Shown piece by piece: positions 41,661 through 58,646 of a stretch of 58,646 bases of DNA (positions are counted from its first letter, which is position 1; each line of letters begins with the position of its first letter). Origin of the DNA: an uncultured Gammaproteobacteria bacterium (GTDB lineage Bacteria; Pseudomonadota; Gammaproteobacteria; CAYTUN01). The DNA lies in assembly GCA_964441315.1 (NCBI GenBank), contig CAYTUN010000002.1, positions 1 to 58,646 on the forward strand. The letters are read 5' to 3'. A model generated the notes under the pieces. That model did no database searches. It saw nothing but the letters and a program-made list of their open reading frames with translations, and was not told the DNA's origin. Both the position numbers and the translations under genes were made by a program.

Positions 41661-41824
41661 GATTTAATAAATTCCTTTACTAAATAAATAATTTGATAAA
41701 AATCAATTAATAAATTAGCGGAAATTATAGCGGTAAATATCGGATTTGAAAACACAAATTAAATCGCTTGCGCGATTTAACAGGGTTTTGTTGGAGTTAT
41801 GGCGTGAAGTTAAAGTTATTTATT

Positions 41825-42493
41825 TCATTGGACGGCTAAGCCGTTGTTGTATCTGAGGTCGACAACTTTTGGTTTAGTTGTGTTGTTGGCAAATAGCTTG
41901 GGATAAATATTGACGAATTTTGTGAGGCGTTCGGTTTGTTTTTGGCTGCCGACATTTAATTGCATTTGGTTGGAGAGAATGAGGGTGAGATTGTCTTGCG
42001 CGTCTAATTGCAATTCGGTGATGGTTAATTGAACAGGTTTAAGTTCGGTTTCAACTTCCGACAGGAGTTCATTAACATGGGAAGGATCTGCAACCGAATT
42101 GATTAAAGGTAAATTTTGATAACGCGGTTTAATAGGCGTTTCTGGAACGATACTGCCATCTTGCGTTAGTAAGCCATTTTGGCCCCAACGGGCCAAAGGG
42201 ATTTTTTCATTTATTTGAATTTGAATGCCGTCTGGCCAAACGCGGACGACCTCGGCGGATGCTACCCAAGGTTCATTTAATAAATTATCACGTAATTTAA
42301 ATAAATTAACCGAAAAAAAACCTTGATGAGCATAGGGCAATAATAATTTCGCTAATGAATTTGCATCAAAATTCCGCAATGGCGCTGCGACAGATATTTC
42401 CCTTAACGGGAAATAAAGCGGTGATAGCAAAATAATGCCGGCTAACACTAAGCAGAGAAGTAAAGTTAAATAGGAAAGGATGCGTTCTAACAT
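41825..42493 (-). CDS. ftsQ: Cell division protein FtsQ
   Basis: N-terminal TM followed by a POTRA/FtsQ-type domain. Lies between ddl and ftsA. Confidence 0.85.
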   Translation of the reverse strand: MLERILSYLTLLLCLVLAGIILLSPLYFPLREISVAAPLRNFDANSLAKLLLPYAHQGFFSVNLFKLRDNLLNEPWVASAEVVRVWPDGIQIQINEKIPLARWGQNGLLTQDGSIVPETPIKPRYQNLPLINSVADPSHVNELLSEVETELKPVQLTITELQLDAQDNLTLILSNQMQLNVGSQKQTERLTKFVNIYPKLFANNTTKPKVVDLRYNNGLAVQ

Positions 42494-42500
42494 AAATTAA

Positions 42501-42552
<52 letters not shown>

Positions 42553-42572
42553 CAAAAAATTTACTTTCTATT

Positions 42573-42723
42573 TTGTCATTGCGAGTTCTTTGTCATTGCG
42601 AGGGAGCGAATGCGACCGCGGCAATCTCCTGACGTGATTTTAGCACTAGATTGTCTAGTGCAATGTTATCATCAGGAGATTGCCGCGCTTCGCTCGCAAT
42701 GACAAAGAACTTGCAATGACAAG
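42573..42723. repeat. Family-2 palindromic element (units facing inward, with an extra partial unit at each end)
   Basis: ttgtcattgcgagttctttgtcattgcgagggagcgaatgcgaccgcggcaatctcctga ... tcaggagattgccgcgcttcgctcgcaatgacaaagaacttgcaatgacaag. Confidence 0.88.
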
Positions 42724-42745
42724 AGACTTATCATGACAAGCCAAA

Positions 42746-43855
42746 TTATTTCTCCCCCGCCATGACAGCACGCGAAATATTATTTGTCGTTTGTTGGCGC
42801 TTCAGCGCCAATTCGATCAATCCCGACACTAATTCTTTTTGCGGTTTACCGGATAATGCAAATAAACGCGGATACATACTGATCTGCGTAAATCCTGGCA
42901 TGGTATTCAGTTCATTTAAATAAATTTTATCTTCCTGCACAAAAAAATCGACACGCGCTAAACCTTCACAGCAAAGCACATCAAAAGCATGGCATGCGAT
43001 TTTTTGTAAAGCTTCTAGCATTCCTGGTTCAAATTTAGCAGGTGCAATTAATTCCGCACCTTCAGGATCAAAATATTTTCCGTTATAAGTATAAAATTCG
43101 TATTTCGCTGCGGGAATAATTTCTCCCGCAACTGATGCAACCGTATTTTTATGCACGCCAAAAACACTTAATTCAATTTCACGTCCGGCAATAAATTCTT
43201 CTGCTATTAATTTATCATCATAAATTTTCGCTGTTTCCACTGCTTTTTGATAATCCATTTCTGATTTAATTTTGTGCACACCAATTGAAGAGCCGGTATT
43301 GGCGGGTTTTAAAAAAAACGGTAAACCCAATTGATTTTTTATTTGTTCAAAAGTAGGCGCTTTTTCTTCCGCATAAAAACTTAACCAACGCGCAGTTAAA
43401 ATACCGGCTTGTTGGCAAAGACGCTTCGTTACCTCTTTATCCATATTAATAGACGAACCTAAAACACGTGAGCCAACATAAGGAATTTTCATCAATTCCA
43501 ATAATCCCTGCAATGCACCATCCTCCACCATTCGACCATGCATAATGGGAAAAACGACATCAACTTGAAAATTTCGATTTGAACCATCTTGATATAAAAA
43601 TTGCGCAGCAGAATTACCTGGCAATAATGCTAACGGAACGCCATTTTCAGCAGCAGTTAATTGCTCAACTTTATTATAATCAAATAAATATTTATGATTT
43701 TTAATCAAATACCAATTGCTATCGCGGTCAATATAAATCAAATAAATAAAATAATTATTTTCTTCCAACGCTCGATAAACATTTCGCGCTGACATAATCG
43801 AAACTTCATGTTCCGCCGAAGGGCCGCCAAAAATTAATCCGACGCGATATTGCAT
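42746..43855 (-). CDS. ddl: D-alanine--D-alanine ligase (long, DdlA-type length)
   Basis: VGLIFGGPSAEHEVS and the ATP-grasp C-terminus YLNELNTMPGFT. The ATG at 43855 lies 1 nt after the murB stop. Confidence 0.92.
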   Translation of the reverse strand: MQYRVGLIFGGPSAEHEVSIMSARNVYRALEENNYFIYLIYIDRDSNWYLIKNHKYLFDYNKVEQLTAAENGVPLALLPGNSAAQFLYQDGSNRNFQVDVVFPIMHGRMVEDGALQGLLELMKIPYVGSRVLGSSINMDKEVTKRLCQQAGILTARWLSFYAEEKAPTFEQIKNQLGLPFFLKPANTGSSIGVHKIKSEMDYQKAVETAKIYDDKLIAEEFIAGREIELSVFGVHKNTVASVAGEIIPAAKYEFYTYNGKYFDPEGAELIAPAKFEPGMLEALQKIACHAFDVLCCEGLARVDFFVQEDKIYLNELNTMPGFTQISMYPRLFALSGKPQKELVSGLIELALKRQQTTNNISRAVMAGEK

Positions 43856-43856
43856 A

Positions 43857-44726
43857 TTATTTTTCCCCAATAATGTGACATTCACGCACTAATTGAACGC
43901 CAGTTTTTGCTAAAACTTCTGCTTGTACCAAATCAATTAAATTTTCAATATCAGCGGCTGTCGCCGCATGATCGTTAATAATAAAATTGGCGTGTTTTTC
44001 TGAAACGACAGCACCACCGATTCTTTTGCCCTTCAAACCACAACTTTCAATTAACTTTGCGGCAAAATTTCCTGGTGGATTGCGAAATACTGAACCGCAA
44101 TTAAAGCTACCAATCGGCTGTGTGTCATTTCTTTTTTGTAAATAAGTTTTTATTTCTCTCGATGCTTCAGCTGCATCACCGAGTTGAAACTTGAAATAAC
44201 CGCAAACAAACCATTCGTTAAGCTTACGCTTAACTTCACGATAACCAACTTCAAATTCATTTTTATCGCGATGGTGGATCTTACCGGACTGGTCAATCGT
44301 ATCGACTGCGATGCAGTGGTTCCAGGTTTCATGGCCGAATGCTCCCGCATTCATTGCCAAGGCACCGCCAACAGTACCCGGAATTCCCGCAAAAAATGCG
44401 CTGTCGGGAAAGCCTAATTGAGCAGCAAATTTTGCTAATTTAGCGCAAGTCACACCGGCTTCGGCAATAATGATTTCATTTTCGTAAGCGATTTTATTTA
44501 AATAGGCTTGAGTGTGTATGACTGTGCCAGCATAACCGCGATCACGAATTAAAACATTGCTGCCTAAACCTAACCATATAATCGGCTGAGAAGAATTGCG
44601 TTCTGCTAAAAATTGGCTTAATTCATCTAGAGATTTTGGTTGATATAATTCATGACAAATCCCTCCCACATGCCAGGAATTATATTGCATTAAAGATTCA
44701 TTTTTCAGGATCACAAATTTGCTCAT
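43857..44726 (-). CDS. murB: UDP-N-acetylenolpyruvoylglucosamine reductase
   Basis: FAD-binding LGLGSNVLIRD plus AGIPGTVGGALAMNAGAFG, GSVFRNP and SEKHANFIIN. Confidence 0.93.
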   Translation of the reverse strand: MSKFVILKNESLMQYNSWHVGGICHELYQPKSLDELSQFLAERNSSQPIIWLGLGSNVLIRDRGYAGTVIHTQAYLNKIAYENEIIIAEAGVTCAKLAKFAAQLGFPDSAFFAGIPGTVGGALAMNAGAFGHETWNHCIAVDTIDQSGKIHHRDKNEFEVGYREVKRKLNEWFVCGYFKFQLGDAAEASREIKTYLQKRNDTQPIGSFNCGSVFRNPPGNFAAKLIESCGLKGKRIGGAVVSEKHANFIINDHAATAADIENLIDLVQAEVLAKTGVQLVRECHIIGEK

Positions 44727-46162
44727 TCTTTAATGAGATTTGCTAAATTTTCCGCAAACTGACCAATGCTGCCTGCGCCTTGTGTTAATACTATATCGTT
44801 ATTTTGAATTGCTATTTTTAGAGCTTGTGGCAATTCTTCAATGTGTTTCACAAAATAGGTCGGTTTATCTTGGCGCATTTGTTTTACTGCTTGATATAAA
44901 TTTTCGCCGCTGATTTCAGTAATCGGTTTTTCGCCAGCAGAATAAATATCTAATAAAATACAGACATCTGGCTTACTAAAAACCTGAACAAAATCGCGGA
45001 ATAATTCTTGCACGCGCGTATAACGATGTGGTTGGTGCACTAAAACAATACGACGATCTGGCCAGGCATCACGCGCTGCATTTAATGTCACTTCGATTTC
45101 TTTTGGATGATGACCATAGTCATCAACGTGTAAAAATTTTCCCTGAGGAATTTCATATTCACCATAAATCTGGAAACGCCGTCCCACGCCTTTAAATTGC
45201 GATAAAGCTTGATAGGCAATCACAATGGGAATATTAAAATGTTTTGCCGCAATGTAAGCAGCGGTTGCATTGGCTGCATAATGTCTGCCCGGCATATTCA
45301 ATACTAAATCGATTTTCATGCCATCGCGTTTATCATGAATTGTAAAAGCGGAACGGGTGTCATGCGGGTGGTAATCTATTATTTGCACCATCGCATGATC
45401 AGCATAACCATAAGTGACATAAGGCACTTTGATATCGGGAAACATTTGCGTTAAATGCAAATCATCAGCGCATAAAATTGCTATACCATTAGGTTGCAAG
45501 CGATGAATAAATTCAAAAAAACTTTGTTTTAATTGTTCAAAATCATGGTTATAAGTACTTAAATGATCCGCATCAATATTCGTTACAATAGTAGCGAAGG
45601 GATTTAAAAATAAAAATGATGCATCGGATTCATCAGCTTCTGCTATAAAATATTTTCCTTGGCCAAGAAAAGAATTTCTCCCAGCGCTTTGTAGAATGCC
45701 GCCAATCACATAAGTTGGATCCAATCCTGCTTCGGTGAAAACAGAAGTGGTCATACTAGTAGTAGAAGTTTTACCATGCGTGCCCGCGATCGCGATGCCG
45801 GTTTTTAATTGCATCAGATGGGCTAACATTTCCGCGCGGGCTAAAACCGGCAAACAGCGGGCGCGGGCTTCGATTAATTCAGGATTGCCTTCATCGATGG
45901 CGCTAGAAACCACGACAATTTCAGTATTTTTTATGTTTTCTGCAGAATGGTTTAGGTAAATTTCAACACCTAAAGATTCAAGCCGCGTCACCAGTTTATT
46001 ACGCTTCACATCCGAACCACTGACTTGATAACCAGCAGATTGCAGCAACTCAGCAATGCCACTCATTCCTACGCCGCCGATACCAATAAAATGAATGCGC
46101 TTGATGCTCGATAAATCCAGCGGCTGAATGACATGCTCTTTTGCTAATAACTGCGCTAACAT
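44723..46162 (-). CDS. murC: UDP-N-acetylmuramate--L-alanine ligase
   Basis: IHFIGIGGVGMSGIAELL, AGTHGKTSTTSM and DDYGHHP. Confidence 0.95.
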   Translation of the reverse strand: MLAQLLAKEHVIQPLDLSSIKRIHFIGIGGVGMSGIAELLQSAGYQVSGSDVKRNKLVTRLESLGVEIYLNHSAENIKNTEIVVVSSAIDEGNPELIEARARCLPVLARAEMLAHLMQLKTGIAIAGTHGKTSTTSMTTSVFTEAGLDPTYVIGGILQSAGRNSFLGQGKYFIAEADESDASFLFLNPFATIVTNIDADHLSTYNHDFEQLKQSFFEFIHRLQPNGIAILCADDLHLTQMFPDIKVPYVTYGYADHAMVQIIDYHPHDTRSAFTIHDKRDGMKIDLVLNMPGRHYAANATAAYIAAKHFNIPIVIAYQALSQFKGVGRRFQIYGEYEIPQGKFLHVDDYGHHPKEIEVTLNAARDAWPDRRIVLVHQPHRYTRVQELFRDFVQVFSKPDVCILLDIYSAGEKPITEISGENLYQAVKQMRQDKPTYFVKHIEELPQALKIAIQNNDIVLTQGAGSIGQFAENLANLIKE

Positions 46163-46259
46163 AGGAAAAACCTCGTAATAGACATCCTGTCAGTGTTAAT
46201 TATAGACTGCGAATGTAGCTTTTTTTGTCGGCTGAGACAACCTGAAATAATCCCAAAAC

Positions 46260-47597
46260 ATGTCAGAAACTAATCTAATTAAACAAATAAAAACCATAAC
46301 AATTATCGCATTACCGTTAATGGCAGCATTTTTAGCACAAAAAGGCATACAGATTACCGACACGATCATGTTGGGCTGGTTGGGAACAAATCAGCTGGCA
46401 GCAGGCGCATTAGGCGTTGCTATTTTTCTGACTTGCGGCACATTTGGTTTGGGCACATTAAGCTCCGTTGGGATTTTTGTCGCCCGCGCTCGCGGCCAAG
46501 AAACACATGATGAAATACCGCTGATTTTGCAACAGGGTATCATCATGGTATTTATCATGGCATTACCATTAATGTTACTTATTTGGCACTTGCCCGCTAT
46601 TTTGTTGAAATTCAATCAAGATCCCGCCGTCATTAAGCAAGTTGCATTACTCGTTCATGGTTTAATTTGGGGTTTTCCCGGGTTTTTATTATTTTTCGTG
46701 TTTCGCGAATTTATTGCAGCGTTTGCTTTAACACGCATCATTATGTTGGTTTGTTTATTTTCGGTTCCGCTCACTTTTATCGGCAATTATATTTTTATCT
46801 ATGGGAAATTCGGTTTTCCTAATCTAGGAATTGCTGGTATTGGTTATGTCGGTGCAGCGATATATTGGTTGATATTTATGAGTTTATTCAGCTACTACAA
46901 ATTAAATTCACAACTTAAAAAATATATTCAATTTTCTTCTTTTAAATTGGATTTAGAAAAAATACTTGCGATGTTTCGTTTGGGTACGCCTAGTGGCGTA
47001 ATTTTAGTGCTGGATGCAGGCATGTTTTCCATCGCAGCAGTGATGATGGGCTCCTTTAGCAGTGCTGCATTAGCGGGACACCAAATTGCCATCATTTGTG
47101 CCAGCACGGTTTTCGCTATTGCTTTTTCTATTTCAATGGCGACAGCGCTGCAAGTTGGCTATGCAGCAGGCGCCAATGATTTTGTCACAGCGAAACGATT
47201 TGCCTGGATAGGCTTAAGTCTGGGTTTAATTATCACACTAGTGATTGCACTGTTTTTTATTTTTATCCCGGGATTGTTTGTAAAAATATTTTTAAATCGT
47301 CAGGTCAGCAATTATTCAACGGTAAAATATTACGCTTATCAGCTTTTGATGATTGCTGGCATATTTCAATTTTTTGACACATTACAGATCACACTAAATG
47401 GTATTTTAAAAGGCATAAAAGATACTTTTGTTCCCATGCTGTATTACATCGCTTGTTATTGGATAATCGGTCTTGGTTCTGCTTATTATTTAGCTTTTCA
47501 TACTTCGCTTAAAGCTTTTGGTGTCTGGTGGGGTTTAACGGTGGGAATTATCAGTATAGCGGCGGTTTTGTTTATACGATTTTTGAAGAAATTTTAA
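46260..47597 (+). CDS. MATE-family efflux transporter
   Basis: 445 aa with 12 TM helices and a NorM-like N-terminus (IIALPLMAAFLAQKGIQITDTIMLGWLG). Opposite strand, inserted between murC and murG. Confidence 0.85.
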   Translation: MSETNLIKQIKTITIIALPLMAAFLAQKGIQITDTIMLGWLGTNQLAAGALGVAIFLTCGTFGLGTLSSVGIFVARARGQETHDEIPLILQQGIIMVFIMALPLMLLIWHLPAILLKFNQDPAVIKQVALLVHGLIWGFPGFLLFFVFREFIAAFALTRIIMLVCLFSVPLTFIGNYIFIYGKFGFPNLGIAGIGYVGAAIYWLIFMSLFSYYKLNSQLKKYIQFSSFKLDLEKILAMFRLGTPSGVILVLDAGMFSIAAVMMGSFSSAALAGHQIAIICASTVFAIAFSISMATALQVGYAAGANDFVTAKRFAWIGLSLGLIITLVIALFFIFIPGLFVKIFLNRQVSNYSTVKYYAYQLLMIAGIFQFFDTLQITLNGILKGIKDTFVPMLYYIACYWIIGLGSAYYLAFHTSLKAFGVWWGLTVGIISIAAVLFIRFLKKF

Positions 47598-47621
47598 TTT
47601 AGGAAAATTTTTATTTATTAT

Positions 47622-47896
47622 CACTCCTCATCCGCCCCGTTGGGGCACCTTCTCCCACAAGGGGAGAAGGCCAACTTCGGCTACATCTGCCAATCAAATA
47701 AACTTCAATGCGATGAAATAAGCCTTGTTATGAAAAACTAATCAATAACCCCGCAGCAGAGCTGCGGGGTATGAAATGAATTTTTTATTTCTATCGAAGC
47801 AGCGCTTCGAGGAATTAAACCTTCAAAGATTAAATCATGATGAAGGCCTTCTCCCCTTGTGGGAGAAGGTGCCCCGTAGGGGCGGATGAGGGGTGA
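47622..47896. repeat. Family-1 MITE-like element, complete copy
   Basis: Arms cactcctcatccgccccgttggggcaccttctcccacaaggggagaaggcc / ggccttctccccttgtgggagaaggtgccccgtaggggcggatgaggggtga. The core has two extra hairpins (ccccgcagcagagctgcgggg and tcgaagcagcgcttcga). Confidence 0.9.
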
Positions 47897-47940
47897 TCAA
47901 AAATTTAAAAAAATTTTATGAATTTTTTTACATTAACAAT

Positions 47941-48981
47941 TTAACGAGCCACACGCAAAACAGCTGCTGTAATTTTCTCCACCGCATCCCCCATCACCAG
48001 TTTTTTTAATTTTTGCGACATCGCTGCCAGCTTTTGCGGATTTACTAATAACGTTTGAATCATGTCAGTCAATTTCTGCTGATCAATTTCATTTTGACGA
48101 ATAATAAAAGCTGCATCTTGATCAGCTAAATATTTGGCATTATAAAATTGATGATCATCGACTGCGTGCGGAAGAGGAATAAAAATCGCTGGGCGGCCGC
48201 TTGCTGCGATTTCGCTGACGGTTAGTGCACCGGAACGCGCAATGACTAAATCAGCCCAAGCATAAGCTTGCTGCATTTCACGCTCAAACCCGGAAATTTT
48301 AGCAGTTAACTTTAATTGATGATAAAACTCAGTGGTTTGCTCTTGGTGTTTGCTACCAGCAATATGCCAAATATTTAATTGCTCTTTATCAAACTGCGTT
48401 AAAATTTCTGGAACTTTTTCATTAAAAATTTTTGCGCCTTGGCTACCGCCGACAATTAAAATTTTTAATGGCAAATTAATTTTCGCTAATGCAGCAATCG
48501 ATCGAATATCAGCACGTACTGGATTACCTGTCGTTATCGCCTGTTTAAAACTATTCGGAAATGCCTGGCAGGTTTGATCAGCAATTTTCGCCAACAAACG
48601 ATTGGTCAAACCCGGAATCGAATTTTGTTCATGAATTACCAAAGGAATACGATTGCGCTTTGCTGCTAAACCACCGGGCAAACAAACATAACCGCCAAAA
48701 CCTACGACTACTTCGGGTTTAATTTTTTTAATAATTTTTTCCGCTTGAAAATAAGCTTTCAGCATATGCTGAGTTGCACTCAGCATCTTTAGGGGGGATT
48801 TTCCTCTGACACCGCTGGCTGCAATCACGTGTAGCGGATAATTTTTAACTAATTGTTGTTCGAGTCCCTGCGGTGTGCCTAGCCAATGCAGTTCATGAGA
48901 TTCATTCGTTAATCGATCAGCAATCGTTAGCGCCGGAATAATATGGCCGCCAGTACCGGCGGCCATGATTAGAATTTTCAA
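47941..48981 (-). CDS. murG: Undecaprenyldiphospho-muramoylpentapeptide beta-N-acetylglucosaminyltransferase
   Basis: MAAGTGGHIIPAL, GGSQGA and ARSGALTVSE. Confidence 0.95.
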   Translation of the reverse strand: MKILIMAAGTGGHIIPALTIADRLTNESHELHWLGTPQGLEQQLVKNYPLHVIAASGVRGKSPLKMLSATQHMLKAYFQAEKIIKKIKPEVVVGFGGYVCLPGGLAAKRNRIPLVIHEQNSIPGLTNRLLAKIADQTCQAFPNSFKQAITTGNPVRADIRSIAALAKINLPLKILIVGGSQGAKIFNEKVPEILTQFDKEQLNIWHIAGSKHQEQTTEFYHQLKLTAKISGFEREMQQAYAWADLVIARSGALTVSEIAASGRPAIFIPLPHAVDDHQFYNAKYLADQDAAFIIRQNEIDQQKLTDMIQTLLVNPQKLAAMSQKLKKLVMGDAVEKITAAVLRVAR

Positions 48982-50111
48982 TATTTTACTCCCTGATTCG
49001 ATTCACGCCAATTTTCATACGACAGGCGCAAAAATATTCCTAACATGACGCAATTCACTAAAATACTGGTGCCGCCATAACTCAATAATGGCAAGGTCAA
49101 TCCTTTTGTCGGCAACAAGCCGCAATTCACTGCCATATTAATGAATGCCTGAAATCCCATAATTAATCCCAGGCCCCAGCCTAAATAAGCATGAAATAAT
49201 TCGTTGACTTGATAATCACGATACGCAATTAAAAATACTCGCGTAATTAATCCGGCAAATAATAAAATGACAAACATTTCACCCATAAAACCGAGTTCTT
49301 CACCTAGTACCGCAAATAAAAAATCGGTATGGGCTTCTGGCAAATAAAATAATTTTTGGATGCTGTTTCCCAACCCTACACCAAAAAATCCGCCACGGCC
49401 AAAAGCAATTAAAGATTGTGTTAATTGATAACCACTATCAAATTGATTCGCCCAAGGATGCAGAAAAGTGGTGAGCCGCACTAAACGGTAAGGCGCGGTA
49501 ATTGCCAATAAGGTTAAAGCAGAACCCGCCAACACGACAATTATAATTAAAGGAAATAAACGCGCACCGGCTAAAAATAATAATAAAATGCTGGCAACCG
49601 TAATCACCGCCACTGTACCAAAATCTGGCTGCTGCAATAATAATAATGCAATTAATGCTAATACTAAAAACGGCTTGATAAAACCGCTAAATTTTTCGCG
49701 CACTTCATCTTCGCGACGCTCGAGATAACCAGCCAAATAAATAATAAAAAATAATTTCGCTAATTCGGAAACTTGCAAAGTCATAAAACCTAAATTAATC
49801 CAGCGCATACTGCCATTCACTTCACGCCCGACGCCCGGCACTAAAACAAATAATAATAAAGCAATCGTAATCAACACACAGTAACCACTGATGCGATACC
49901 AAAATTTAATCGGCAAAAATAAAACAAATGCCAAAGCCGTTAAACCAAAAGCCAGATAACCGGCCTGGTGAATTAAATAATTAAACGGCGTGTGATACTG
50001 GCTTTCAGAAATCACCATGGAACTGGAGGCGACCATTAATAATCCCATGCCAATTAAAAAAGCGGCGGGAACGACTAAATAACGATCGAGATAAAATAAA
50101 TTCTGTTTCAT
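48978..50111 (-). CDS. ftsW: SEDS-family peptidoglycan glycosyltransferase FtsW
   Basis: 10-TM SEDS profile with QVSELAKL, PDFGT and LPTKGLTLPLLSYGGTS. Lies between murD and murG. Confidence 0.93.
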   Translation of the reverse strand: MKQNLFYLDRYLVVPAAFLIGMGLLMVASSSMVISESQYHTPFNYLIHQAGYLAFGLTALAFVLFLPIKFWYRISGYCVLITIALLLFVLVPGVGREVNGSMRWINLGFMTLQVSELAKLFFIIYLAGYLERREDEVREKFSGFIKPFLVLALIALLLLQQPDFGTVAVITVASILLLFLAGARLFPLIIIVVLAGSALTLLAITAPYRLVRLTTFLHPWANQFDSGYQLTQSLIAFGRGGFFGVGLGNSIQKLFYLPEAHTDFLFAVLGEELGFMGEMFVILLFAGLITRVFLIAYRDYQVNELFHAYLGWGLGLIMGFQAFINMAVNCGLLPTKGLTLPLLSYGGTSILVNCVMLGIFLRLSYENWRESNQGVKY

Positions 50112-51442
50112 GATAAATCTTTTACTAAGTGAACAAATTGCTCGCCACGATCTTCAAAGTTTTTAAACATATCGAAGCTGGCACAGGCTGGCGCCAATAA
50201 TACGGCATCGTCGGCTTTTGCTAAAGATTTTGCCAGCAAAACGCCTGCTTTTAAATTTTCGGCTTCATGGGTTTTAGTCACTTGACTGAAAGCCTTTAAC
50301 ATCATTGGCTTATCTTCTCCCATAATAACGGCAGCTTTGACATAGCTAGCTAGTGTTGGATTCAATTCGCTGAAATCAGCGCCTTTTCCTTGGCCGCCGG
50401 CAATCAAAATGATTTTACCTTTAATACTTTTTCCAATCGATTCGATGGATGCTTTAGCGGCGCCGACGTTAGTCGCTTTAGAGTCATTGATCCACAAAAT
50501 ATTATCTTGAGTCGGAATAATTTGGCAGCGATGCGCAAGGCCAGTAAAATTTTTTAAAGTTGATATCATCGCTTCAAATCTGATTCCATAACAATGCGCT
50601 AATGCAATTGCTGCCAGCGCATTTAATATTTGGTGTTTGCCTAATAATTTTAAATCCGTTGCCGCGATAATTTTTTCTTTTCCATAAGATAAATGGCTGA
50701 CGCCATTTATTACAGTGATGCCGAAATTATTTTCGGTTGGGGCATCAAAGCCGAAGCTGATGATTTTTTTTGCTTGGATATTTTGGGTTAATTCGGGTTG
50801 CTCACGATTTACGACAGCAAATTTTATGTGGCGATAAATTCTTTGTTTTGCTAAAAGATAATTTTCGAGGCTGCCATGGCGGTCGATATGATCGGGTGAT
50901 AAATTTAAAATAGTGGCTGCTAATAAATTGAGTGAGTAAGTTGTTTCTAATTGAAAGCTGGATAATTCTAAAACATATAATTCAATGTCTTCTGATAATA
51001 AATCCAAAGCAGGCGTGCCCAGATTTCCGCCGACTGCGACTTTAATACCGGCATTTTTAGCGATTTCTCCTAGCAAAGTGGTGACTGTACTTTTACCGTT
51101 GGAGCCAGTAATCGCAATCACCGGCGCTTTCGCGGCTTCTGCAAATAATTCAATGTCACCGATAATCGGTATATTTTTGTGTTGCGCAGCAATAATGACA
51201 GGTTCAGTTAATGCAATGCCTGGACTAACAATCAGTCTTTTTGCTTGTTGGCAAAGCGTTATATCAAAACCGCCAGTGATGAGTTTATTATGAGGAAATT
51301 TCTGTTTAAACGCTTGCATGAGTGGCGGCTCTGGCCTTGAATCCATTACCAAAAAATCCTCGCCTCTTTCAGCAAAATAATTTGCGCAAGAAAAACCGGA
51401 TTTGCCTAAACCAAGAATAATATTTTGAGCTGAGGTTGACAT
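50108..51442 (-). CDS. murD: UDP-N-acetylmuramoylalanine--D-glutamate ligase
   Basis: ILGLGKSG, ITGSNGKSTV and NDSKATN. Confidence 0.95.
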   Translation of the reverse strand: MSTSAQNIILGLGKSGFSCANYFAERGEDFLVMDSRPEPPLMQAFKQKFPHNKLITGGFDITLCQQAKRLIVSPGIALTEPVIIAAQHKNIPIIGDIELFAEAAKAPVIAITGSNGKSTVTTLLGEIAKNAGIKVAVGGNLGTPALDLLSEDIELYVLELSSFQLETTYSLNLLAATILNLSPDHIDRHGSLENYLLAKQRIYRHIKFAVVNREQPELTQNIQAKKIISFGFDAPTENNFGITVINGVSHLSYGKEKIIAATDLKLLGKHQILNALAAIALAHCYGIRFEAMISTLKNFTGLAHRCQIIPTQDNILWINDSKATNVGAAKASIESIGKSIKGKIILIAGGQGKGADFSELNPTLASYVKAAVIMGEDKPMMLKAFSQVTKTHEAENLKAGVLLAKSLAKADDAVLLAPACASFDMFKNFEDRGEQFVHLVKDLS

Positions 51443-51529
51443 ACTGCGGCCTTTTTAGCTTTTAAAATTTATCAATCCTCGCCATAATAACACGAACACT
51501 GATTAAATTTGGAAGCTTAGGATTTGCTA

Positions 51530-52264
51530 ATGCGGCGCTTGATCATTACCTGTTTTGCTTGTTTTTTGATGCTCGTCATCAAAAACGCATTTTGCTGGAA
51601 GGAATTAAGTCCCGGCATTGAATATGAAAAATTAAATTTTTCCAGTGATTCAAGCCACGTCCATGCATTTAAAATCGACCCAAAACGTTATCATTTCGAT
51701 TTAGTCGTAAAAAACCGCCTTGATCATTTTCCCACCAAACAATCTTTTTTGCCTGACAATGCTTTGATTGCGGTCAATGGCGGTTTTTTTGCGCCCGATT
51801 TGCAGCCCTTAGGCTTGCGTATTAACAACGGAAAAACTTTAAGCAGTTACAAAGCCATCAGCTGGTGGGGAATATTTTTTATTCAAGATGATGTGCCACA
51901 AATTATTGCATCAAATAATTTTCAGCCGAATAAAAAAATCAATTTTGCCGTACAAAGCGGGCCGCGTTTAATTGTTGATTCGGATGTACTCTCATTAAAA
52001 CCTGGAATTGCTAATCGCAGCGCTTTATGCATTGATAAAGAAAAAAATATTATTATCGCTGTAACGGAATTTTATCCGCTGGCTTTAACGGAATGGGCGC
52101 AAATCTTGATGAATAATTTGGGTTGTCAATTTGCACTTAATTTAGATGGTGGCCGCTCAACGCAGCTCGCGGCAAAGATTGGTGATTTTGCTTTAAATAT
52201 CGGCGGTTTTACGCCGGTTTCTGATGTGATTGCGGTTAGTCAAAAAAGTGCGGGCAACTTTTAG
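51530..52264 (+). CDS. Phosphodiester glycosidase-family protein (DUF2233)
   Basis: Signal peptide, then IAVNGGFF, QSGPRLIV and ALNLDGGRSTQL. Opposite strand, inserted in the dcw cluster. Confidence 0.75.
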   Translation: MRRLIITCFACFLMLVIKNAFCWKELSPGIEYEKLNFSSDSSHVHAFKIDPKRYHFDLVVKNRLDHFPTKQSFLPDNALIAVNGGFFAPDLQPLGLRINNGKTLSSYKAISWWGIFFIQDDVPQIIASNNFQPNKKINFAVQSGPRLIVDSDVLSLKPGIANRSALCIDKEKNIIIAVTEFYPLALTEWAQILMNNLGCQFALNLDGGRSTQLAAKIGDFALNIGGFTPVSDVIAVSQKSAGNF

Positions 52265-52294
52265 CATTAGAAAAGCTATGGTGCTAATTCGCAA

Positions 52295-52399
52295 TCAGGG
52301 GATTGCCGCGCGCTGCGCTTCCTCGCAATGACAAAGAAAAGGCACAATGCCACTCTTTTGTCATTGCGAGGAAGCGCAGCGAACGCGGCAATCCCCTGA
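52295..52399. repeat. Family-2 palindromic element (units facing outward)
   Basis: tcaggggattgccgcgcgctgcgcttcctcgcaatgacaaag ... ttttgtcattgcgaggaagcgcagcgaacgcggcaatcccctga, between the convergent DUF2233 and ahpD genes. Confidence 0.9.
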
Positions 52400-52422
52400 C
52401 CAAAAGTCGGCGCCAAACTTTA

Positions 52423-52950
52423 CTAGTTCTGCCCCACAAACACCGCATTCGCAGCCGCTTTTAAAACCGCAGCAATTCTAATCGCCGATTGCAAAGCGAC
52501 TTTGCTGACTTCAAATTTTTCTAACGTTTTTAAATGCGCATTAATACACATACCACAAGCATTAATTGCCGAAACGGCAAGACAAGCTAATTCAAAATCT
52601 TTTTTCTCGCCTTGATGTTCTTTAATCATATTCATCCGAATTTTAGCCGGCATACTGGCGTAATCTTTATCATCAGCTAAATGAACAAAGCGATAATAAA
52701 CATTATTCATCGCCATCGTCAGCGCTGCAGCTTCAGCACAAGCTTTCATTTCTGCATCGATTTTATCTTCGTTTAAAAGAGCTGTGATTAATTCTTTATT
52801 TTCAGTCGCATAGGCCGAAGCTAATGCAATAATATAAACTTGTTTTAAAGTTAATCCTTCTGAACCTTCTTCCGATAAAATACTACTTAAATTTAATCTG
52901 ACGTCTTTAGCGGTTTCCGGTAATTTTTGCCTCAAATTTTCGATAGTCAT
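52423..52950 (-). CDS. ahpD: Alkylhydroperoxidase AhpD
   Basis: Carboxymuconolactone decarboxylase/AhpD core with CxxC (ACGMCINAH). Downstream of ahpC. Confidence 0.85.
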   Translation of the reverse strand: MTIENLRQKLPETAKDVRLNLSSILSEEGSEGLTLKQVYIIALASAYATENKELITALLNEDKIDAEMKACAEAAALTMAMNNVYYRFVHLADDKDYASMPAKIRMNMIKEHQGEKKDFELACLAVSAINACGMCINAHLKTLEKFEVSKVALQSAIRIAAVLKAAANAVFVGQN

Positions 52951-53010
52951 AATGGTTTCCTTTAATTAAGTTTTAAATAAGCTTTTAATTAGGGAAGAGT
53001 TATTTAACAA

Positions 53011-53346
53011 CACCCCTCATCCGCCCCGTTGGGGCACCTTCTCCCGCAAGGGGAGAAGGACAACTTCTTGTACATCTGCCAAACCAATAAAGTTAAATGC
53101 CATGAAATAAGTTTTGTTGTAAGAAAGCTATTGAACTTTGTTGAGAGCCTTCTCCCCTTGTGGGGGTATTGTTGAATAAATCCGATTTTTTGTAGGGGCA
53201 ACCCCCTGTGGTTGCCCATCGCATCGGTAGCACCGAGACCAAGGCAGGCACAGGGGCCTGCCCCTACGTTTTGTTTTTTTATTTTTTTGAATTATTCAAC
53301 AACGCCCCTTATGGGAGAAGGTGCCCCAACGGGGCGGATGAGGGGT
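53011..53346. repeat. Family-1 MITE-like element whose right arm is interrupted by a second element
   Basis: The left arm is intact. The right arm is split: gccttctccccttgtggg | insert | ccccttatgggagaaggtgccccaacggggcggatgaggggta. Lies in the ahpC-ahpD spacer. Confidence 0.9.
53165..53304. mobile_element. ~140-nt nested MITE-like insertion carrying the family-4 GC-rich palindrome
   Basis: 11-nt terminal inverted repeat ttgttgaataa (53169-79) / ttattcaacaa (53292-302). Flanked by the direct duplication ccccttgtggg (53154-64) / ccccttatggg (53305-15). Confidence 0.75.
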
Positions 53347-53424
53347 AATAAAAATACCGATCATCGATAGCACAACACACCCCAAGATTAGCACAAAACA
53401 CCCAATACCCCTTTGATTGCAGCG

Positions 53425-53964
53425 TCAAGCTGCAATAGTTTGTTCACCTTTTTGCCAATTGCAAGGGCAGAGTTCATCGGTTTGCAACGCATCCAACACG
53501 CGCAATACTTCTTTTGGATTACGGCCAACTGATAAATCCGTCACCATAATAAATCGCACTATATTATCGGGATCGACAATAAAAGTAGCACGTTGAGCAA
53601 CACCTTCGGCTTCATCCAAAATATCGAGTGCTTGTGATAATTCGCGTTTTGTATCTGCTAGCATTGCAAATGGCAAATGACGAATTTCTTCTTTATGGAT
53701 TCGCCAATTTAAATGGACGAATTCAGAATCGGTGCTGAAGCCGTAAACGACTGCATCGCGCTCATTGAATTGCGCATTCATTTTGCCGAATTCTGCAATT
53801 TCTGTCGGACAAACAAAGGTAAAATCTTTAGGCCAGGAGAAAAAGATTTTCCATTTACCTTGATCAGTATTTTGATCAATCTCTTTGAAAGCTTTACCTG
53901 GCGCTATATCTACCACTGCTTTTAAATTAAATTGAGGGAACTTTTGGCCTATTTTGATCATCAT
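53425..53964 (-). CDS. ahpC: Peroxiredoxin AhpC (AhpC/TSA family)
   Basis: Peroxidatic Cys motif FTFVCPTEI and C-terminal Cys pair ELCPCNW. Paired with ahpD and divergent from oxyR. Confidence 0.9.
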   Translation of the reverse strand: MMIKIGQKFPQFNLKAVVDIAPGKAFKEIDQNTDQGKWKIFFSWPKDFTFVCPTEIAEFGKMNAQFNERDAVVYGFSTDSEFVHLNWRIHKEEIRHLPFAMLADTKRELSQALDILDEAEGVAQRATFIVDPDNIVRFIMVTDLSVGRNPKEVLRVLDALQTDELCPCNWQKGEQTIAA

Positions 53965-54023
53965 TTATCTCCGGTAGGTAAAATTGATAGGTGGATAATA
54001 CGCTGCAAAAATTGATAAATCCA

Positions 54024-54060
54024 ATTGATTGTTACTATAATGTTAATAGTTATTATCTAT
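54024..54060. promoter_or_regulatory. Putative OxyR operator in the ahpC/oxyR divergent region
   Basis: ATTG-n7-CTAT-n7-ATAG-n7-CTAT, versus the E. coli OxyR consensus ATAG-n7-CTAT-n7-ATAG-n7-CTAT. Confidence 0.5.
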
Positions 54061-54074
54061 TATTGAGTGATGCC

Positions 54075-54956
54075 ATGAACTTGCGCGATTTTGATTATTT
54101 GATAGCTTTGGCAGAGCAGCAGCATTTTGGCAAAGCGGCAAAACGCTGTCATGTTAGCCAGCCGACTTTAAGTATGCAAATAAAAAAATTAGAGCGTGAA
54201 TTGGGTGTGAGTTTAATTGAGCGCAATCGCAAGCAATTTCGCTTAACGCTGTCGGCAGAAAAAATTATTGAGCATATTAGACAAATTCAACAGCAAATCA
54301 AAAACATTAAAGAAATCGGATTATTAGCGCAAGACAGTCTCGCAGGCAATGTTTATTTAGGAGCAATTCCAACGGTTGCGCCCTATTTATTGCCTAAAAT
54401 TATGCCGAAACTGACACATGCGTTTCCAAAAATTAACTTTTTTTTAATTGAAGCGCAAACCGAGCGCTTATTGGAAATGTTACATTCTGGCAAATGTGAC
54501 TGCGCTATTTTAGCTTTACCAATTAATGATACGCGTCTACAAGTAAAAACACTTTTGAGTGAGGATTTTTTATTGGCTGTGCCAACAACTCATCCATTTG
54601 CAAAAAAAACCACCATTAAACTAGAAGAACTGCGCAAGGAAACGCCGCTATTGTTAGAAGAAGGCCATTGCTTGCGCGAGCAAGCATTAGAAATTTGCCA
54701 ACAAGTGGGCACGCTTGAATATGATTCTTTTAAAGCAACCAGTTTAGAAACTTTACGCCAAATGGTTGCAGCTAATTTGGGTGTTACGCTCGTGCCAGAA
54801 ATGGCAGCATTGCCGACAAAAAATTGTGTTTATTTACCGTTTGCGAAGAAAGCACCGCAAAGAAAAATTGCACTGGTGTGGCGCAATGCGCATTTGCGAG
54901 ATAGATTATTTAATTTGATGGTTTCGTTGTTGGTGAATGAGGATATTCAAAAATAA
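54075..54956 (+). CDS. oxyR: Hydrogen-peroxide-sensing LysR regulator OxyR
   Basis: MNLRDFDYLIALAEQQHFGKAAKRCHVSQPTLSMQIKKLE parallels the E. coli OxyR N-terminus. The redox Cys pair lies in EEGHCLREQALEIC. Confidence 0.88.
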   Translation: MNLRDFDYLIALAEQQHFGKAAKRCHVSQPTLSMQIKKLERELGVSLIERNRKQFRLTLSAEKIIEHIRQIQQQIKNIKEIGLLAQDSLAGNVYLGAIPTVAPYLLPKIMPKLTHAFPKINFFLIEAQTERLLEMLHSGKCDCAILALPINDTRLQVKTLLSEDFLLAVPTTHPFAKKTTIKLEELRKETPLLLEEGHCLREQALEICQQVGTLEYDSFKATSLETLRQMVAANLGVTLVPEMAALPTKNCVYLPFAKKAPQRKIALVWRNAHLRDRLFNLMVSLLVNEDIQK

Positions 54957-54958
54957 TA

Positions 54959-55050
54959 TGTAGGGGGGATTAGCGCAGCGTAATCCACCATCAAGCATTG
55001 CAGTACTGCTAAACTAATTGGTGGATTACGCTGCGCTAATCCCCCCTACA
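54959..55050. repeat. Family-3 REP-like palindrome
   Basis: tgtaggggggattagcgcagcgtaatccacc ... ggtggattacgctgcgctaatcccccctaca, between the convergent oxyR and mraY stops. Confidence 0.9.
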
Positions 55051-55064
55051 TTTATTTGATTTAT

Positions 55065-56153
55065 TTAGCGCAACTTCAATGTCGCCAAACCAATCAACAC
55101 CAAAATAAATGTAATAATCCAAAACCGCACAATCACACGCGGCTCTGGCCAACCTTTTAATTCAAAATGATGATGTATTGGCGCCATGCGAAAAATACGT
55201 TTGCCGGTTAATTTAAATGAAGCAACTTGGAGAATGACCGAAACGGTTTCAATAACAAAAATTCCACCCATAATAAATAAAACTAATTCCTGTTTCACAA
55301 TTACTGCAATCGTTCCTAATATCGCACCTAGACCCAATGCACCAACATCACCCATAAATACTTGCGCCGGATAAGTGTTGTACCACAAAAATCCCAGACC
55401 AGCGCCAACAACCGAAGCGGCAACAATCGCGACTTCACCAGAGCCTGGCACAAAAGGAATCACTAAATATTTCGAGAAAATCGCATTGCCCGTTACATAA
55501 GCAAAAATACCCAGCGCACCTGCAACCATCACTGTTGGCATCACTGCCAAGCCATCCAAACCATCAGTTAAATTAACGGCGTTACTCGTGCCAACAATCA
55601 CAAAATAAGCAAAGATAATAAAAAACACGCCGAGATGAATGGTAAATGATTTAAAAAACGGAATGACTAAATCGGTTGCCAAATATTCTTGCGGCGACAA
55701 AATAAAATACAAAGCGATGGCGATAATAATGCCAAATAAAGATTGCAACGGATATTTATAGCGCGCTTTTAAACCATAATGATTCTTGCGGGTCAATTTT
55801 AAATAATCATCCAGCCAGCCGACAAAACCAAAACTCAACATCGCAAATAACGTCAGCCAAACATAAGGATTAAATAAATCAGCCCATAAAATCGTGCTTA
55901 AAAAAATTGCAACGAGAATTAATGTGCCACCCATCGTCGGCGTGCCTGCTTTGCTGAAATGCGATTGTGGGCCATCTGTGCGAATCACTTGTTTAATTTG
56001 ATCTCGCGATAAACGGCGAATTAACCACGGCCCAATTAACCAGGAAATGATCAATGCCGTCAGCGTTGCTAAAATCGAACGCAGACTCAAATATTGAAAA
56101 ACTCGAAAAAAACTAAAATAATGGAATAAGTATTCCGAAAGCCAAACTAACAT
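55065..56153 (-). CDS. mraY: Phospho-N-acetylmuramoyl-pentapeptide transferase
   Basis: [25 protein letters not shown] matches the E. coli MraY N-terminus. [13 protein letters not shown] and HHHFE motifs present. Confidence 0.96.
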
Positions 56154-56172
56154 TTTCTATCCTTATTTTATT

Positions 56173-57504
56173 TTATATTAATGCTTGAACGATTTCTTCC
56201 ATCTTCATTGAACGCGAGCCTTTTACCAAAATGCTGGTATTTTCTGGCCATTCGCGTTTTAACGCTTTAATTAATTCCATTTTATTCTCAAAATGCTTCG
56301 CATTTTGACCATAGGATTTGACGGCTTCTTGCATCAGTTCACCGGTTGCGTAGAACTGGTTAATTCCGGCTTGTTTGATTTTTTCGCCGATTTCGCGGTG
56401 ATATTGCGCTGCGTTTTCGCCTAATTCGCGCATGTCGCCCAATACAATGATTTTATAGCCAGGGCGTGAAGCTAGAATATTGATGGCGGCGCTGGTGGAC
56501 AAGGGATTAGCGTTATAAGTATCGTCGATAATTTCTAAATGACTACGTTGGTGAATCACGAGGCGTTTATTGGGTGCTTCTGCTTTTTCCAGGCCTTTTG
56601 CAATCGCGGTCATCGGAACATTTAATGCATGAGCACAAGCTGCTGCAGCAAGCGCATTCATCACATTATGTTGTCCCATAATATTTAATTTAATCGTTGC
56701 CGTTTTTTCACCAATGACTAAATCAAAACGCGCGCAACCATCTTTTTCAATTTGAGTATTTTTTGCAGTGACATCAGCTGGATTTTTTATGCCAAAAGTA
56801 ATAACTCGATGCGTCGTATTTAAACCTTTCCAATAACTCGCATGTGTATCATCGCTATTAATAACGCTAATATCGTTTGCACCTAGTTGACCATAAATAT
56901 TGCCTTTTTCACGCGCCACGCCATCGACACTACCAAAACCTTGCAGGTGCGCTTCAGCGGCATTAGTAATTAATGCGACATTCGGTTTTGCAATTTGCGT
57001 TAAATAAGCAATTTCGCCAAGATGATTAGCGCCGATTTCTAATATGGCGAATTTATGTTGTGAGTTTAATTTTAATAAGGTTAACGGACAGCCAATATTA
57101 TTATTAAAACTGGAAACATTCGCCAACGTCTCGCCGGCTTCGGAAAGAACATTCGATAACATGGTTTTAGTCGTCGTTTTACCACAACTGCCAGTCAAAG
57201 CGACCACCGGCGTTTTAAACTGTTCGCGATGACACCGCGCTATTTCGCCCAAAGCTTGAATCGTATCACTAACCAATAATTGCGGCAGATCAACTTCGGT
57301 TTTTTTGCTGACTAATGCAGCGACAGCACCTTTATTTTTCGCTTCTTTAATATAGTCATGACCATCTAAATTCTCGCCCAGAATAGCGACATAAAGTGCT
57401 CCTACTTCTAAATTGCGAGTGTCTTGTGTCACTGAGGTAAAAACCACATCGTTACCGATGATTTGTCCTCTTGTGATGTGTGCGGCTTGCGATAATTGCA
57501 TCAT
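56173..57504 (-). CDS. murF: UDP-N-acetylmuramoyl-tripeptide--D-alanyl-D-alanine ligase
   Basis: LTGSCGKTTTKTM and DDTYNANP. Immediately upstream of mraY. Confidence 0.95.
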   Translation of the reverse strand: MMQLSQAAHITRGQIIGNDVVFTSVTQDTRNLEVGALYVAILGENLDGHDYIKEAKNKGAVAALVSKKTEVDLPQLLVSDTIQALGEIARCHREQFKTPVVALTGSCGKTTTKTMLSNVLSEAGETLANVSSFNNNIGCPLTLLKLNSQHKFAILEIGANHLGEIAYLTQIAKPNVALITNAAEAHLQGFGSVDGVAREKGNIYGQLGANDISVINSDDTHASYWKGLNTTHRVITFGIKNPADVTAKNTQIEKDGCARFDLVIGEKTATIKLNIMGQHNVMNALAAAACAHALNVPMTAIAKGLEKAEAPNKRLVIHQRSHLEIIDDTYNANPLSTSAAINILASRPGYKIIVLGDMRELGENAAQYHREIGEKIKQAGINQFYATGELMQEAVKSYGQNAKHFENKMELIKALKREWPENTSILVKGSRSMKMEEIVQALI

Positions 57505-57571: not shown

Positions 57572-57599
57572 TTGACGCTTCGCGGATGCTAGTTATAAT
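57572..57599 (+). promoter_or_regulatory. Near-consensus sigma70 promoter for the Panacea-domain operon
   Basis: TTGACG (57572-77), a 16-nt spacer, then TATAAT (57594-99), ~45 nt upstream of the ATG at 57644. Confidence 0.6.
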
Positions 57600-57643
57600 C
57601 GGGACGTTTTCAGCTCAATAATAATAACTAATGCTAAATTACT

Positions 57644-58171
57644 ATGAATAAGCCGGAAATTTCTAGCATGGCCTATCCCGCACAAGCAATCGCGAATTAT
57701 TTTATTAAAAAATCTCTCGAAGAGGGCCGGTTTGATATGACTGTGATGAAAGTATCAAAACTCATTTACATTGCTCATGGCTGGAGCTTGGCGCTTAATG
57801 ATCAGCATTTAATTGGAGAGCCAATTCAAGCTTGGAAATTTGGGCCGGTGATCGAAAGTATTTATCAGGAACTGAATTTTTATGGTCGTGATCCTATTAG
57901 CTCACTGATTATTAAAGTAGAGCCTGATGCTGAAAATCCCTATGAAATTGATGCCAACGATCAGGAAACAAAAAAATTATTAGATCGGGTTTGGGATGTT
58001 TATAAAAAATACAGCGGTTGGGAACTATCAGAATGGAGCCACCAAAAAGACGGCCCTTGGTATCAAGCCTGGCATAAAGATGGCGGCTCAAAAAACCGTT
58101 ATCATGTTATTCCGAACGAAATCATTAAAGACTATTTTTCTAAATTGATCAATTCACATGCCAATGGATAA
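57644..58171 (+). CDS. Panacea (DUF4065, SocA/GepA-like) domain protein; putative PanA-type antitoxin
   Basis: AQAIANYFIKKSLEEGRFDMTVMKVSKLIYIAHGWSLALNDQHLIGEPIQAWKFGPVIESIY matches the A..ANYF...lt.lKL.KLlY.A.GW.La...pL..e.f.AW..GPV...Y pattern of DUF4065 proteins. Confidence 0.8.
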   Translation: MNKPEISSMAYPAQAIANYFIKKSLEEGRFDMTVMKVSKLIYIAHGWSLALNDQHLIGEPIQAWKFGPVIESIYQELNFYGRDPISSLIIKVEPDAENPYEIDANDQETKKLLDRVWDVYKKYSGWELSEWSHQKDGPWYQAWHKDGGSKNRYHVIPNEIIKDYFSKLINSHANG

Positions 58172-58565
58172 AGAAAAATCCGCTATCACGGACGAAAGCA
58201 TCCGTTCTTTTATTGAAAAAAATTATTCCAAAAAGAACAATAAAGAAAATGAAACATTGGAAGAAGTTTTAGAATTAAGAAGAAAAAGAGCTTTAGAATT
58301 GCGCCGAATTGCGGTGGAAGTGGCGCATGGCGAAGAATTAGTGGAATCTCTCATTGAAGATAGAAAAGCACGTAGACGTTATGGGCGGGGTATTTTTATT
58401 TTTGTAATTTGTTATATGGTTGCGGTTTTTCTCTGTCTACTTGATCACAGCAAATATAATCTTTCAGAAAAAGTTTTAATCGCGCTTTTGACAACGACGA
58501 CGTTTAATATTATTGGTTTATTGACGGGTGTGGTGCGTTATCTGTTTCCGCACCATAAAAATTAG
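58158..58565 (+). CDS. Small two-TM protein overlapping the Panacea gene; candidate toxin partner of unknown family
   Basis: 135 aa with a 14-nt overlap on the upstream gene. The N-terminal half is charged and helical. Two TM helices are predicted (GIFIFVICYMVAVFLCLL and VLIALLTTTTFNIIGLLTGVV). Confidence 0.55.
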   Translation: MPMDKEKSAITDESIRSFIEKNYSKKNNKENETLEEVLELRRKRALELRRIAVEVAHGEELVESLIEDRKARRRYGRGIFIFVICYMVAVFLCLLDHSKYNLSEKVLIALLTTTTFNIIGLLTGVVRYLFPHHKN

Positions 58566-58593
58566 TGATCGGTTTTGTTTGAGTTTGTTAGAT

Positions 58594-58646
58594 CACCCCT
58601 CATCCGCCCCGTTGGGGCACCTTCTCCCGCAAGGGGAGAAGGACAA
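58594..58646. repeat. Family-1 MITE-like element, left arm only (cut by window end)
   Basis: cacccctcatccgccccgttggggcaccttctcccgcaaggggagaaggacaa is identical to the left arm at 53011. Confidence 0.88.

Follow-up and report, generated by a model that had tools for sequence, protein, structure and literature searches.

A divergent member of the T3 cluster of Panacea toxin–antitoxin pairs at a contig end of an uncultured gammaproteobacterium

Contig CAYTUN010000002.1 of assembly GCA_964441315.1, from an uncultured gammaproteobacterium, was analyzed over its whole length of 58,646 nt (the window), and its end carries two overlapping genes on the forward strand. The first, panA (57644..58171), encodes a 175-aa single-domain Panacea (DUF4065/SocA-like) protein that is a putative antitoxin. 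The second, panT (58158..58565), encodes a 135-aa putative membrane toxin which we assign, by homologue search, family profile and comparison with four listed toxins, to cluster T3 of the published PanA-PanT (PanAT) toxin-antitoxin (TA) pairs. A sigma-70-like promoter candidate (TTGACG-16 nt-TATAAT; 57572..57599, forward strand) precedes the pair, and an inverted-repeat arm resembling that of a miniature inverted-repeat transposable element (MITE) follows it (58592..58646) and is cut by the contig end. An earlier note, made from the sequence letters, had described a gene with a Panacea signature overlapped by a small two-helix membrane protein, a promoter belonging to the pair and a MITE arm directly behind it; all of these are borne out by the evidence given below, the promoter as a consensus match.

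PanA matches the Pfam family SocA_Panacea (PF13274) with 77 bits (E = 2.7e-21; gathering cutoff 25.7) over positions 3-113 of the 113-position profile, so that the domain is fully covered, and it is also matched by phrog_1281 of PHROGs (E = 7.5e-43). Compared with a 120-sequence Panacea alignment, it keeps the consensus in 35 of 43 conserved columns, and its core motifs are all present (A63-W64, F66-G67-P68-V69, S132-H133, P138-W139). The conserved H133 may be the equivalent of H120 in the PanA studied by Ernits et al. (2023), where the substitutions Y56A and H120E abolish neutralisation. With 95 bits, PanA stays below the cutoff of 190 bits of the NCBIfam SocA equivalog NF047745, and none of the PADLOC v2 defence models matched it. 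A sequence search of the PDB returned for PanA a weak match to CCA-adding enzymes alone, which we take as spurious: the C-terminal 50 residues (124-173; 58013-58162, forward strand) resemble the C-terminus of these enzymes (7otr, 6ibp) with 23 bits and an E value of about 5e-4, a probably fortuitous likeness.

The two genes overlap by 14 nt, or by 8 nt if translation of panT starts at the second ATG (58164), as in the public gene call P0001 (133 aa), and both lengths lie inside the range of the toxin family described below. Residues 1-76 of PanT are rich in charges (18 K+R and 17 D+E) and are followed by two hydrophobic segments at residues 78-96 and 106-126. The first predicted transmembrane (TM) segment, GIFIFVICYMVAVFLCLLD (TM1; coded by 58389..58445, forward strand), reaches a maximum of 2.6 in a 19-residue Kyte-Doolittle window and has the basic motif DRKARRRYGR directly ahead of it. 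The second, LSEKVLIALLTTTTFNIIGLLTGVVRYLFP (TM2; 58473..58535, forward strand), holds the family signature and is the most conserved block of the family alignment. An AlphaFold2 model built on a 49-sequence alignment (mean pLDDT 87.6) has one long helix (residues 12-100), which starts in the soluble part and whose C-terminal part is TM1, then a 3-residue turn and a second helix (residues 104-129) containing TM2. In line with the positive-inside rule, the basic stretches RKARRRYGR before TM1 and RYLFPHHKN after TM2 suggest that both termini are cytoplasmic.

Curated libraries do not name this protein. PanT has zero matches in Pfam and NCBIfam. PADLOC v2 gave sub-threshold similarities only (Csn2, 0.0015; TIR-TM, E = 0.0016; 4TM effector, E = 0.02), and PHROGs only weak matches to families of unknown function. 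In the PDB, relatives of PanT were found neither by sequence nor with Foldseek, where the PanT model had a best E value of 3.1.

A word-index search returned a single partial relative of PanT and suggested an orphan protein. This status was overturned by an exhaustive HMMER search of 1.84 billion cluster representatives (50% clustering), which gave 795 representatives with E ≤ 1e-3, 13 of which reach E ≤ 1e-10; their lengths fall almost without exception between 105 and 180 aa. The members share a variable acidic or otherwise charged N-terminus, a helix ending in (Q/D)DRxxRKxY(A/G), TM1, a short loop and a conserved TM2 with the block consensus LSDxVLIALLTTTTANVIGLxxxVVRYLFP. Window PanT is about 25-45% identical to other members, the closest relative reaching 59% over the C-terminal half, and has all of the family-conserved residues (R72, N117, V125, Y128 and F130).

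The toxin family is found next to Panacea genes in widely different bacteria. According to precomputed Pfam annotation, a SocA_Panacea gene lies directly upstream in 6 of 8 diverse members. For a broader view, species-representative genomes were scanned with a degenerate DNA pattern on the TM2 motif alone, giving at least 120 loci; toxin open reading frames (ORFs) were confirmed with a hidden Markov model (HMM) of the family, and upstream ORFs were classed with a second HMM, for Panacea, whose seed sequences were the neighbours with Pfam annotation. Among the matches listed, the scan held 117 toxin ORFs, nine of them at a locus edge; 103 of the 108 evaluable loci have a Panacea gene as immediate upstream neighbour in the same orientation, four have none and one shows another arrangement. 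When the earlier look-ups are added, the numbers are 133 toxin ORFs, nine at a locus edge and 116 of 124 evaluable loci with Panacea upstream, the remainder being seven without and one arranged otherwise. On viral contigs, 37 pattern matches yielded 36 toxin ORFs (five at a locus edge), and all 31 evaluable ones directly follow a Panacea gene, with no case of an absent partner or another arrangement. The most frequent panA-panT gaps among the listed matches of the genome set are -1, -4, +3, -11 and -14 nt. Hosts include Bacteroidota, Alpha-, Beta- and Gammaproteobacteria, Cyanobacteria, Acidobacteriota, Planctomycetota and Deinococcota, among others.

A conserved third component was looked for and rejected, as none of the 148 Pfam families seen over 120 flanking genes occurs in more than four. 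Since the flanking genes are unrelated between genomes, the pair is a self-contained two-gene cassette, as expected of a TA module. The family and neighbourhood searches that the earlier note had proposed thus bear out its pairing of a Panacea antitoxin with a small membrane protein as putative toxin, an arrangement which is conserved across phyla.

The same note had presented the two genes as a candidate new pair whose downstream protein could not be placed in any named toxin family, and here the published record says otherwise. Kurata et al. 2022 (PNAS 119:e2102212119; PMC8832971) validated nine PanAT pairs, among them three with membrane-acting toxins, from Escherichia coli STEC (Shiga toxin-producing E. 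coli) O31 (cluster T3), Bartonella apis (T12) and Helicobacter sp. (T4). The T3 pair consists of PanA WP_000287252.1 and PanT WP_000019185.1; this PanT is toxic and is neutralised by its cognate PanA (PMC8832971). Both the E. coli and the Bartonella PanT cause a joint shutdown of transcription, translation and replication, depolarise the membrane, for E. coli PanT with a DiSC3(5) signal, and render cells permeable to SYTOX, and PanATs form complexes, that is, neutralisation is direct and of type II (PMC8832971).

Four T3 loci of Dataset S1 (PMC8832971) could be identified in our collection by organism and exact intergenic gap, each with a PanA and a T3 toxin: Niastella vici DJ57 (gap -1 in the dataset and in our locus L044), N. 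yeongjuensis DSM 17621 (-1 in both; L036), Chitinophaga terrae DSM 23920 (+3 and +5 in the dataset; +5 from the first ATG in L050) and Sphingobacterium paludis (-14 in both; L084). In phmmer comparisons, window PanT scores 46 bits against the toxin of N. yeongjuensis, 44 against N. vici, 30 against S. paludis and 27 against C. terrae. An HMM of 103 Panacea-adjacent members from the genome scan, from which the window protein was excluded, matches it with 87 bits (E = 4.5e-29) over residues 12-134. Because of the matches to the four listed toxins and to this independent HMM, we file the window protein as a T3 PanT; its charged residues 1-76 and two C-terminal TM segments also agree with the composition of T3 toxins. 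Other Panacea-adjacent toxins of E. coli belong to the same family: the independent HMM matches them with 34-37 bits, comparison with window PanT gives 16-25 bits, and they share the motif FSDxVLIAxTxAxTLNxFAAFLGVIRGLFP. The locus is thus an intact PanAT cassette and a divergent new member of the known T3 cluster, not a new system: its toxin family is published, widespread and experimentally studied, and the cluster has a validated, membrane-depolarising representative in E. coli (PMC8832971).

Taking gene anatomy, Panacea domain, family membership, conserved adjacency and predicted helical-hairpin architecture together, we read the locus as an intact, self-contained type II TA cassette of the PanAT class, subclass T3, and give this reading a probability of roughly 0.82. 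panA and panT would be co-transcribed from the promoter just upstream and translationally coupled via their overlapping stop and start codons. The helical PanT would insert its C-terminal two-TM hairpin into the inner membrane, with both termini probably in the cytoplasm, and free PanT would dissipate the membrane potential and probably permeabilise the membrane, probably by forming pores. PanA is expected to bind PanT directly through its Panacea domain, most likely contacting the cytoplasmic N-terminus of PanT and the helix ahead of TM1. For the T12/D11 toxin of Bartonella, Ernits et al. 2023 predicted that the toxin meets Panacea with its unstructured N-terminus and a short pre-TM helix; the AlphaFold2 model of window PanT has the same layout. 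Toxicity of window PanT, depolarisation and neutralisation by direct binding are projected here from homology to the E. coli T3 and Bartonella T12/D11 pairs.

Several points weigh against this reading. The promoter, placed at the pair by the earlier note, is a candidate by consensus match (11 of 12 positions), 45 nt upstream of the panA start codon and inside a 139-nt divergent intergenic region common to panA and murF; promoter-like sites found with lax settings are not in excess in this region (4 versus 3.5 ± 2.1 in shuffles), and inspection of the sequence ahead of panA and panT revealed no clear Shine-Dalgarno motif at either gene. The link to T3 runs through the four dataset loci and E. 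coli homologues of other accessions, not through an alignment with WP_000019185.1, and the WP_000287252.1/WP_000019185.1 pair is not among the Panacea loci found in the phage, plasmid and E. coli genome collections. The N-terminal half of PanT, presumed to be the part bound by PanA, is the most variable region of the family. Finally, some family members are without a Panacea partner (those of loci L033, L039 and L052, one of the two copies in L053, and protein P0238).

Compared with named systems, the window pair resembles T3 PanAT in its single-domain Panacea antitoxin encoded upstream, the antitoxin-toxin order and the overlapping or closely spaced genes, and its toxin, which is charged N-terminally and has its predicted TM segments at the C-terminus, resembles T3 PanTs of about 110-160 aa. 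T3 is spread over Bacteroidota, Proteobacteria and phages; in contrast to the validated T3 pair, the window toxin is divergent in sequence and its host is an uncultured gammaproteobacterium. The toxin of T12, NetFlax node D11 (Bartonella apis, now B. choladocola; PanT WP_077993242.1), has a similar make-up of charged N-terminus and C-terminal TM region and is likewise small, membrane-depolarising and neutralised directly by Panacea. T12 is a FlaGs cluster separate from T3, and the two are possibly homologous according to Kurata et al. (PMC8832971). Among the loci collected here, none of the organisms listed under T12 was found.

The SocAB type VI TA system of Caulobacter crescentus shares with window PanA the SocA/Panacea domain of its SocA protein. 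SocA is a ClpXP adaptor, and SocB targets the beta sliding clamp and is unrelated to the window toxin. Membership in SocAB is not indicated, as PanA does not reach the SocA equivalog cutoff and PanT lacks a match to SocB or any other Pfam or NCBIfam family. HokB, TisB, GhoT and RmrT of the RosmerTA system (Gordonia phage Kita) are further small proteins that use a C-terminal or sole TM segment to depolarise or permeabilise the inner membrane, as is proposed for PanT. In contrast to window PanT, these four toxins have no Panacea partner, and their sequences are unrelated to it; the antitoxin logic elsewhere involves an ImmA/helix-turn-helix protein (Rosmer), antisense RNA (type I) or an RNase (type V). 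RmrTA also defends against phage (Ernits et al. 2023).

A role in phage defence also has to be weighed for the T3 family, and its E. coli members are informative in this respect. The phage, plasmid and E. coli genome collections together yielded six Panacea loci of E. coli, five with a toxin gene as partner and one whose Panacea gene has no annotated partner. At least five distinct T3-like pairs, annotated in RefSeq as "Panacea domain-containing protein" and "hypothetical protein", thus occur in E. coli, all in mobile contexts (L137/L140, L138, L139, L142 and L182). In Stx2-converting phages of E. coli O103/O145 (L137/L140), the pair lies in the early region and adjoins a BsuBI-type restriction-modification pair. 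Another lambdoid prophage carries it between the repressor and kil-gam-bet; further pairs adjoin DinI and prophage tail-fibre genes, lie in an ssrA island, or are located in an integrative and conjugative element (ICE) between traD and RAQPRD. In an ICE of E. coli RM11911 (L141, 1594-2367), the gene of a 257-aa Panacea protein is followed by 428 nt without an annotated partner; the protein could be a fusion, or annotation may have missed a small toxin.

The mobile contexts of the E. coli copies fit a function in phage defence or in competition between elements. The same two genes could mainly serve as an anti-phage abortive-infection cassette, in which Panacea senses a phage cue or becomes depleted upon infection and sets free the membrane toxin, which kills the infected cell. 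This explanation deals with biological function and does not conflict with the TA mechanism. It is favoured by the frequency of the family on viral contigs (31 complete pairs among the 37 pattern matches), by the location of E. coli copies at typical accessory or defence positions of prophages and in an ICE, and by one metagenomic member that adjoins an HsdM methylase. Against it stand the PADLOC v2 results for both proteins, the mostly housekeeping genes at chromosomal flanks, and the neighbours of the window pair, which are murF and a MITE and not a defence island. Furthermore, protection from phage by a T3 pair is reported neither in Kurata et al. 2022 (PMC8832971) nor in Ernits et al. 2023. 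On balance, we consider a mainly anti-phage function possible, though less likely than not. The broader version, that T3 PanAT cassettes including the window copy are phage- or ICE-borne abortive-infection modules with Panacea as sensor and the hairpin toxin as membrane-collapsing effector, strikes us as somewhat more doubtful. Still more speculative is the idea that, through the 139-nt divergent region which the window pair shares with murF-mraY, the release of toxin is tied to the synthesis of cell-wall precursors.

It is unlikely that the 135-aa protein is a harmless membrane-anchored protein or that the cassette is a decaying relic whose Panacea gene has another role. One homologue is annotated by JGI merely as "uncharacterized membrane-anchored protein", more candidate PanT genes have been tested than validated (plasmid list, PMC8832971), and the cassette lies beside a MITE in a repeat-rich genome. 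However, both ORFs are full length, PanT keeps all and PanA most of the residues conserved in their families, the overlapping two-gene arrangement is strictly conserved across phyla and phages, and the same cluster holds a validated toxic member (PMC8832971). A SocAB-like type VI mechanism, with the Panacea protein as proteolytic adaptor that hands the toxin to ClpXP in the way Caulobacter SocA hands over SocB, would agree with the family of PanA and its partial NCBIfam SocA_antitoxin match, yet is highly improbable given the unreached equivalog cutoff, a partner that is a membrane hairpin protein and not SocB-like, and the complex formation reported for PanATs (PMC8832971).

For the T3-type PanAT cassette that we prefer, the main gain is one of correct annotation: a product listed by public pipelines as a "hypothetical protein", for which Pfam, NCBIfam and PADLOC have no model, receives a name, T3-type PanT paired with PanA. 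The T3 toxin family is far larger than the word-index search with its 2 hits implies (795 representatives), and its TM2 signature could seed a Pfam or NCBIfam model. Its frequency on phages and ICEs makes the family a reasonable candidate for phage-defence assays, while the understanding of how PanAT systems work is unchanged by this locus.

A few relatives of the toxin are arranged differently. P0238 (112 aa; on 42 contigs, e.g., L012-L014, 2089-2839) has an overlapping upstream partner of 139 aa with no match to Panacea or another Pfam family; this pair is located inside a glycosyltransferase cluster and may represent an antitoxin swap. Candidatus Deianiraea vastatrix (L053; 2849-3154 and 5209-6102) encodes two toxins of the family, one paired with Panacea and one solitary, and in a Thermodesulfobacteriota metagenome-assembled genome (L029; 6499-6759) a short copy stands alone, with a Panacea gene 1.1 kb away. 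The solitary toxins of these two loci may be orphan or decaying.

A foreign composition of the cassette was considered and rejected: its GC content is 38.4% in panA and 35.5% in panT compared with 40.0% in the window, and GC at third codon positions is similar to that of murF.

The contig ends 81 nt past the panT stop codon, within the repeat. Positions 58594-58646 of the MITE-like arm match 53011-53063 with 100% identity; the latter stretch and 53305-53349 are the paired arms of a complete element, about 340 bp long (53011-53349). This dispersed element of about 270-340 bp, with the arm CCCCTCATCCGCCCCGTTGGGGCACCTTCTCCC, is represented by nine arms in the 58.6-kb window versus zero expected, at 46-78, 9922-10183, 23525-23557, 47624-47893, 53011-53349 and 58592-58646; the arm at 23525 is apparently unpaired. 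The contig breaks off in this repeat at either end (46-78 and 58596-58628), indicating an assembly break. The MITE arm is therefore context and the cause of this break, and not part of the TA module. A GC-rich perfect hairpin within the arm (58620-58642) could act as a transcription stop.

On its other side, the pair faces murF (56173..57504, reverse strand), a gene of a fragmented dcw cluster (39028-57504, reverse strand). The cluster consists of the blocks ftsZ-ftsA-ftsQ-ddl-murB-murC, murG-ftsW-murD and mraY-murF; the first two are separated by a MatE gene with a MITE, the second and third by NAGPA-like, AhpD-like, AhpC and LysR/OxyR-like genes with a MITE, and mraY-murF is followed by panAT and the MITE arm, so that every interruption in the window carries a copy of the MITE-like element. 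The earlier note had placed the pair where murE and ftsI normally precede murF; panAT and not murE is indeed the upstream neighbour of murF, while the contig end 81 nt past panT limits the view beyond it.

Among the closest relatives of the host, whose MraY proteins are 72-73% identical (L143/L144), one has the order rsmH-ftsL-ftsI-murE-murF-mraY with a gene for an unknown 445-aa protein between murE and murF (L143) and unrelated genes behind mraY; in the other, murF-mraY stands by itself, with an ankyrin-repeat gene and genes of metabolism on its flanks and no TA genes. As these relatives also have a fragmented dcw cluster without a TA pair, fragmentation around murF-mraY is a trait of the lineage. 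We thus rejected the possibility that insertion of the TA pair broke the cluster, in view of the repeat at the contig end, the two further MITE-marked interruptions and the fragmented clusters of the relatives, and the "broken end of the dcw cluster", to which the earlier note had attached meaning, is an assembly break at a repeat. The exact MurF sequence of the window was found on no other contig on record, and window proteins have no cluster mates at 90% identity.

Two near-perfect palindromes flank genes in the same part of the window, one between the LysR gene and mraY (54958-55051; 47-nt arms, no spacer) and one after the NAGPA-like gene (52311-52381; 34-nt arms, 3-nt spacer); they could represent further small repeats or terminators. 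The only Rfam family that reaches its gathering threshold in the window is 6S RNA (RF00013, 73.5 bits), at 25863-26042 on the forward strand.

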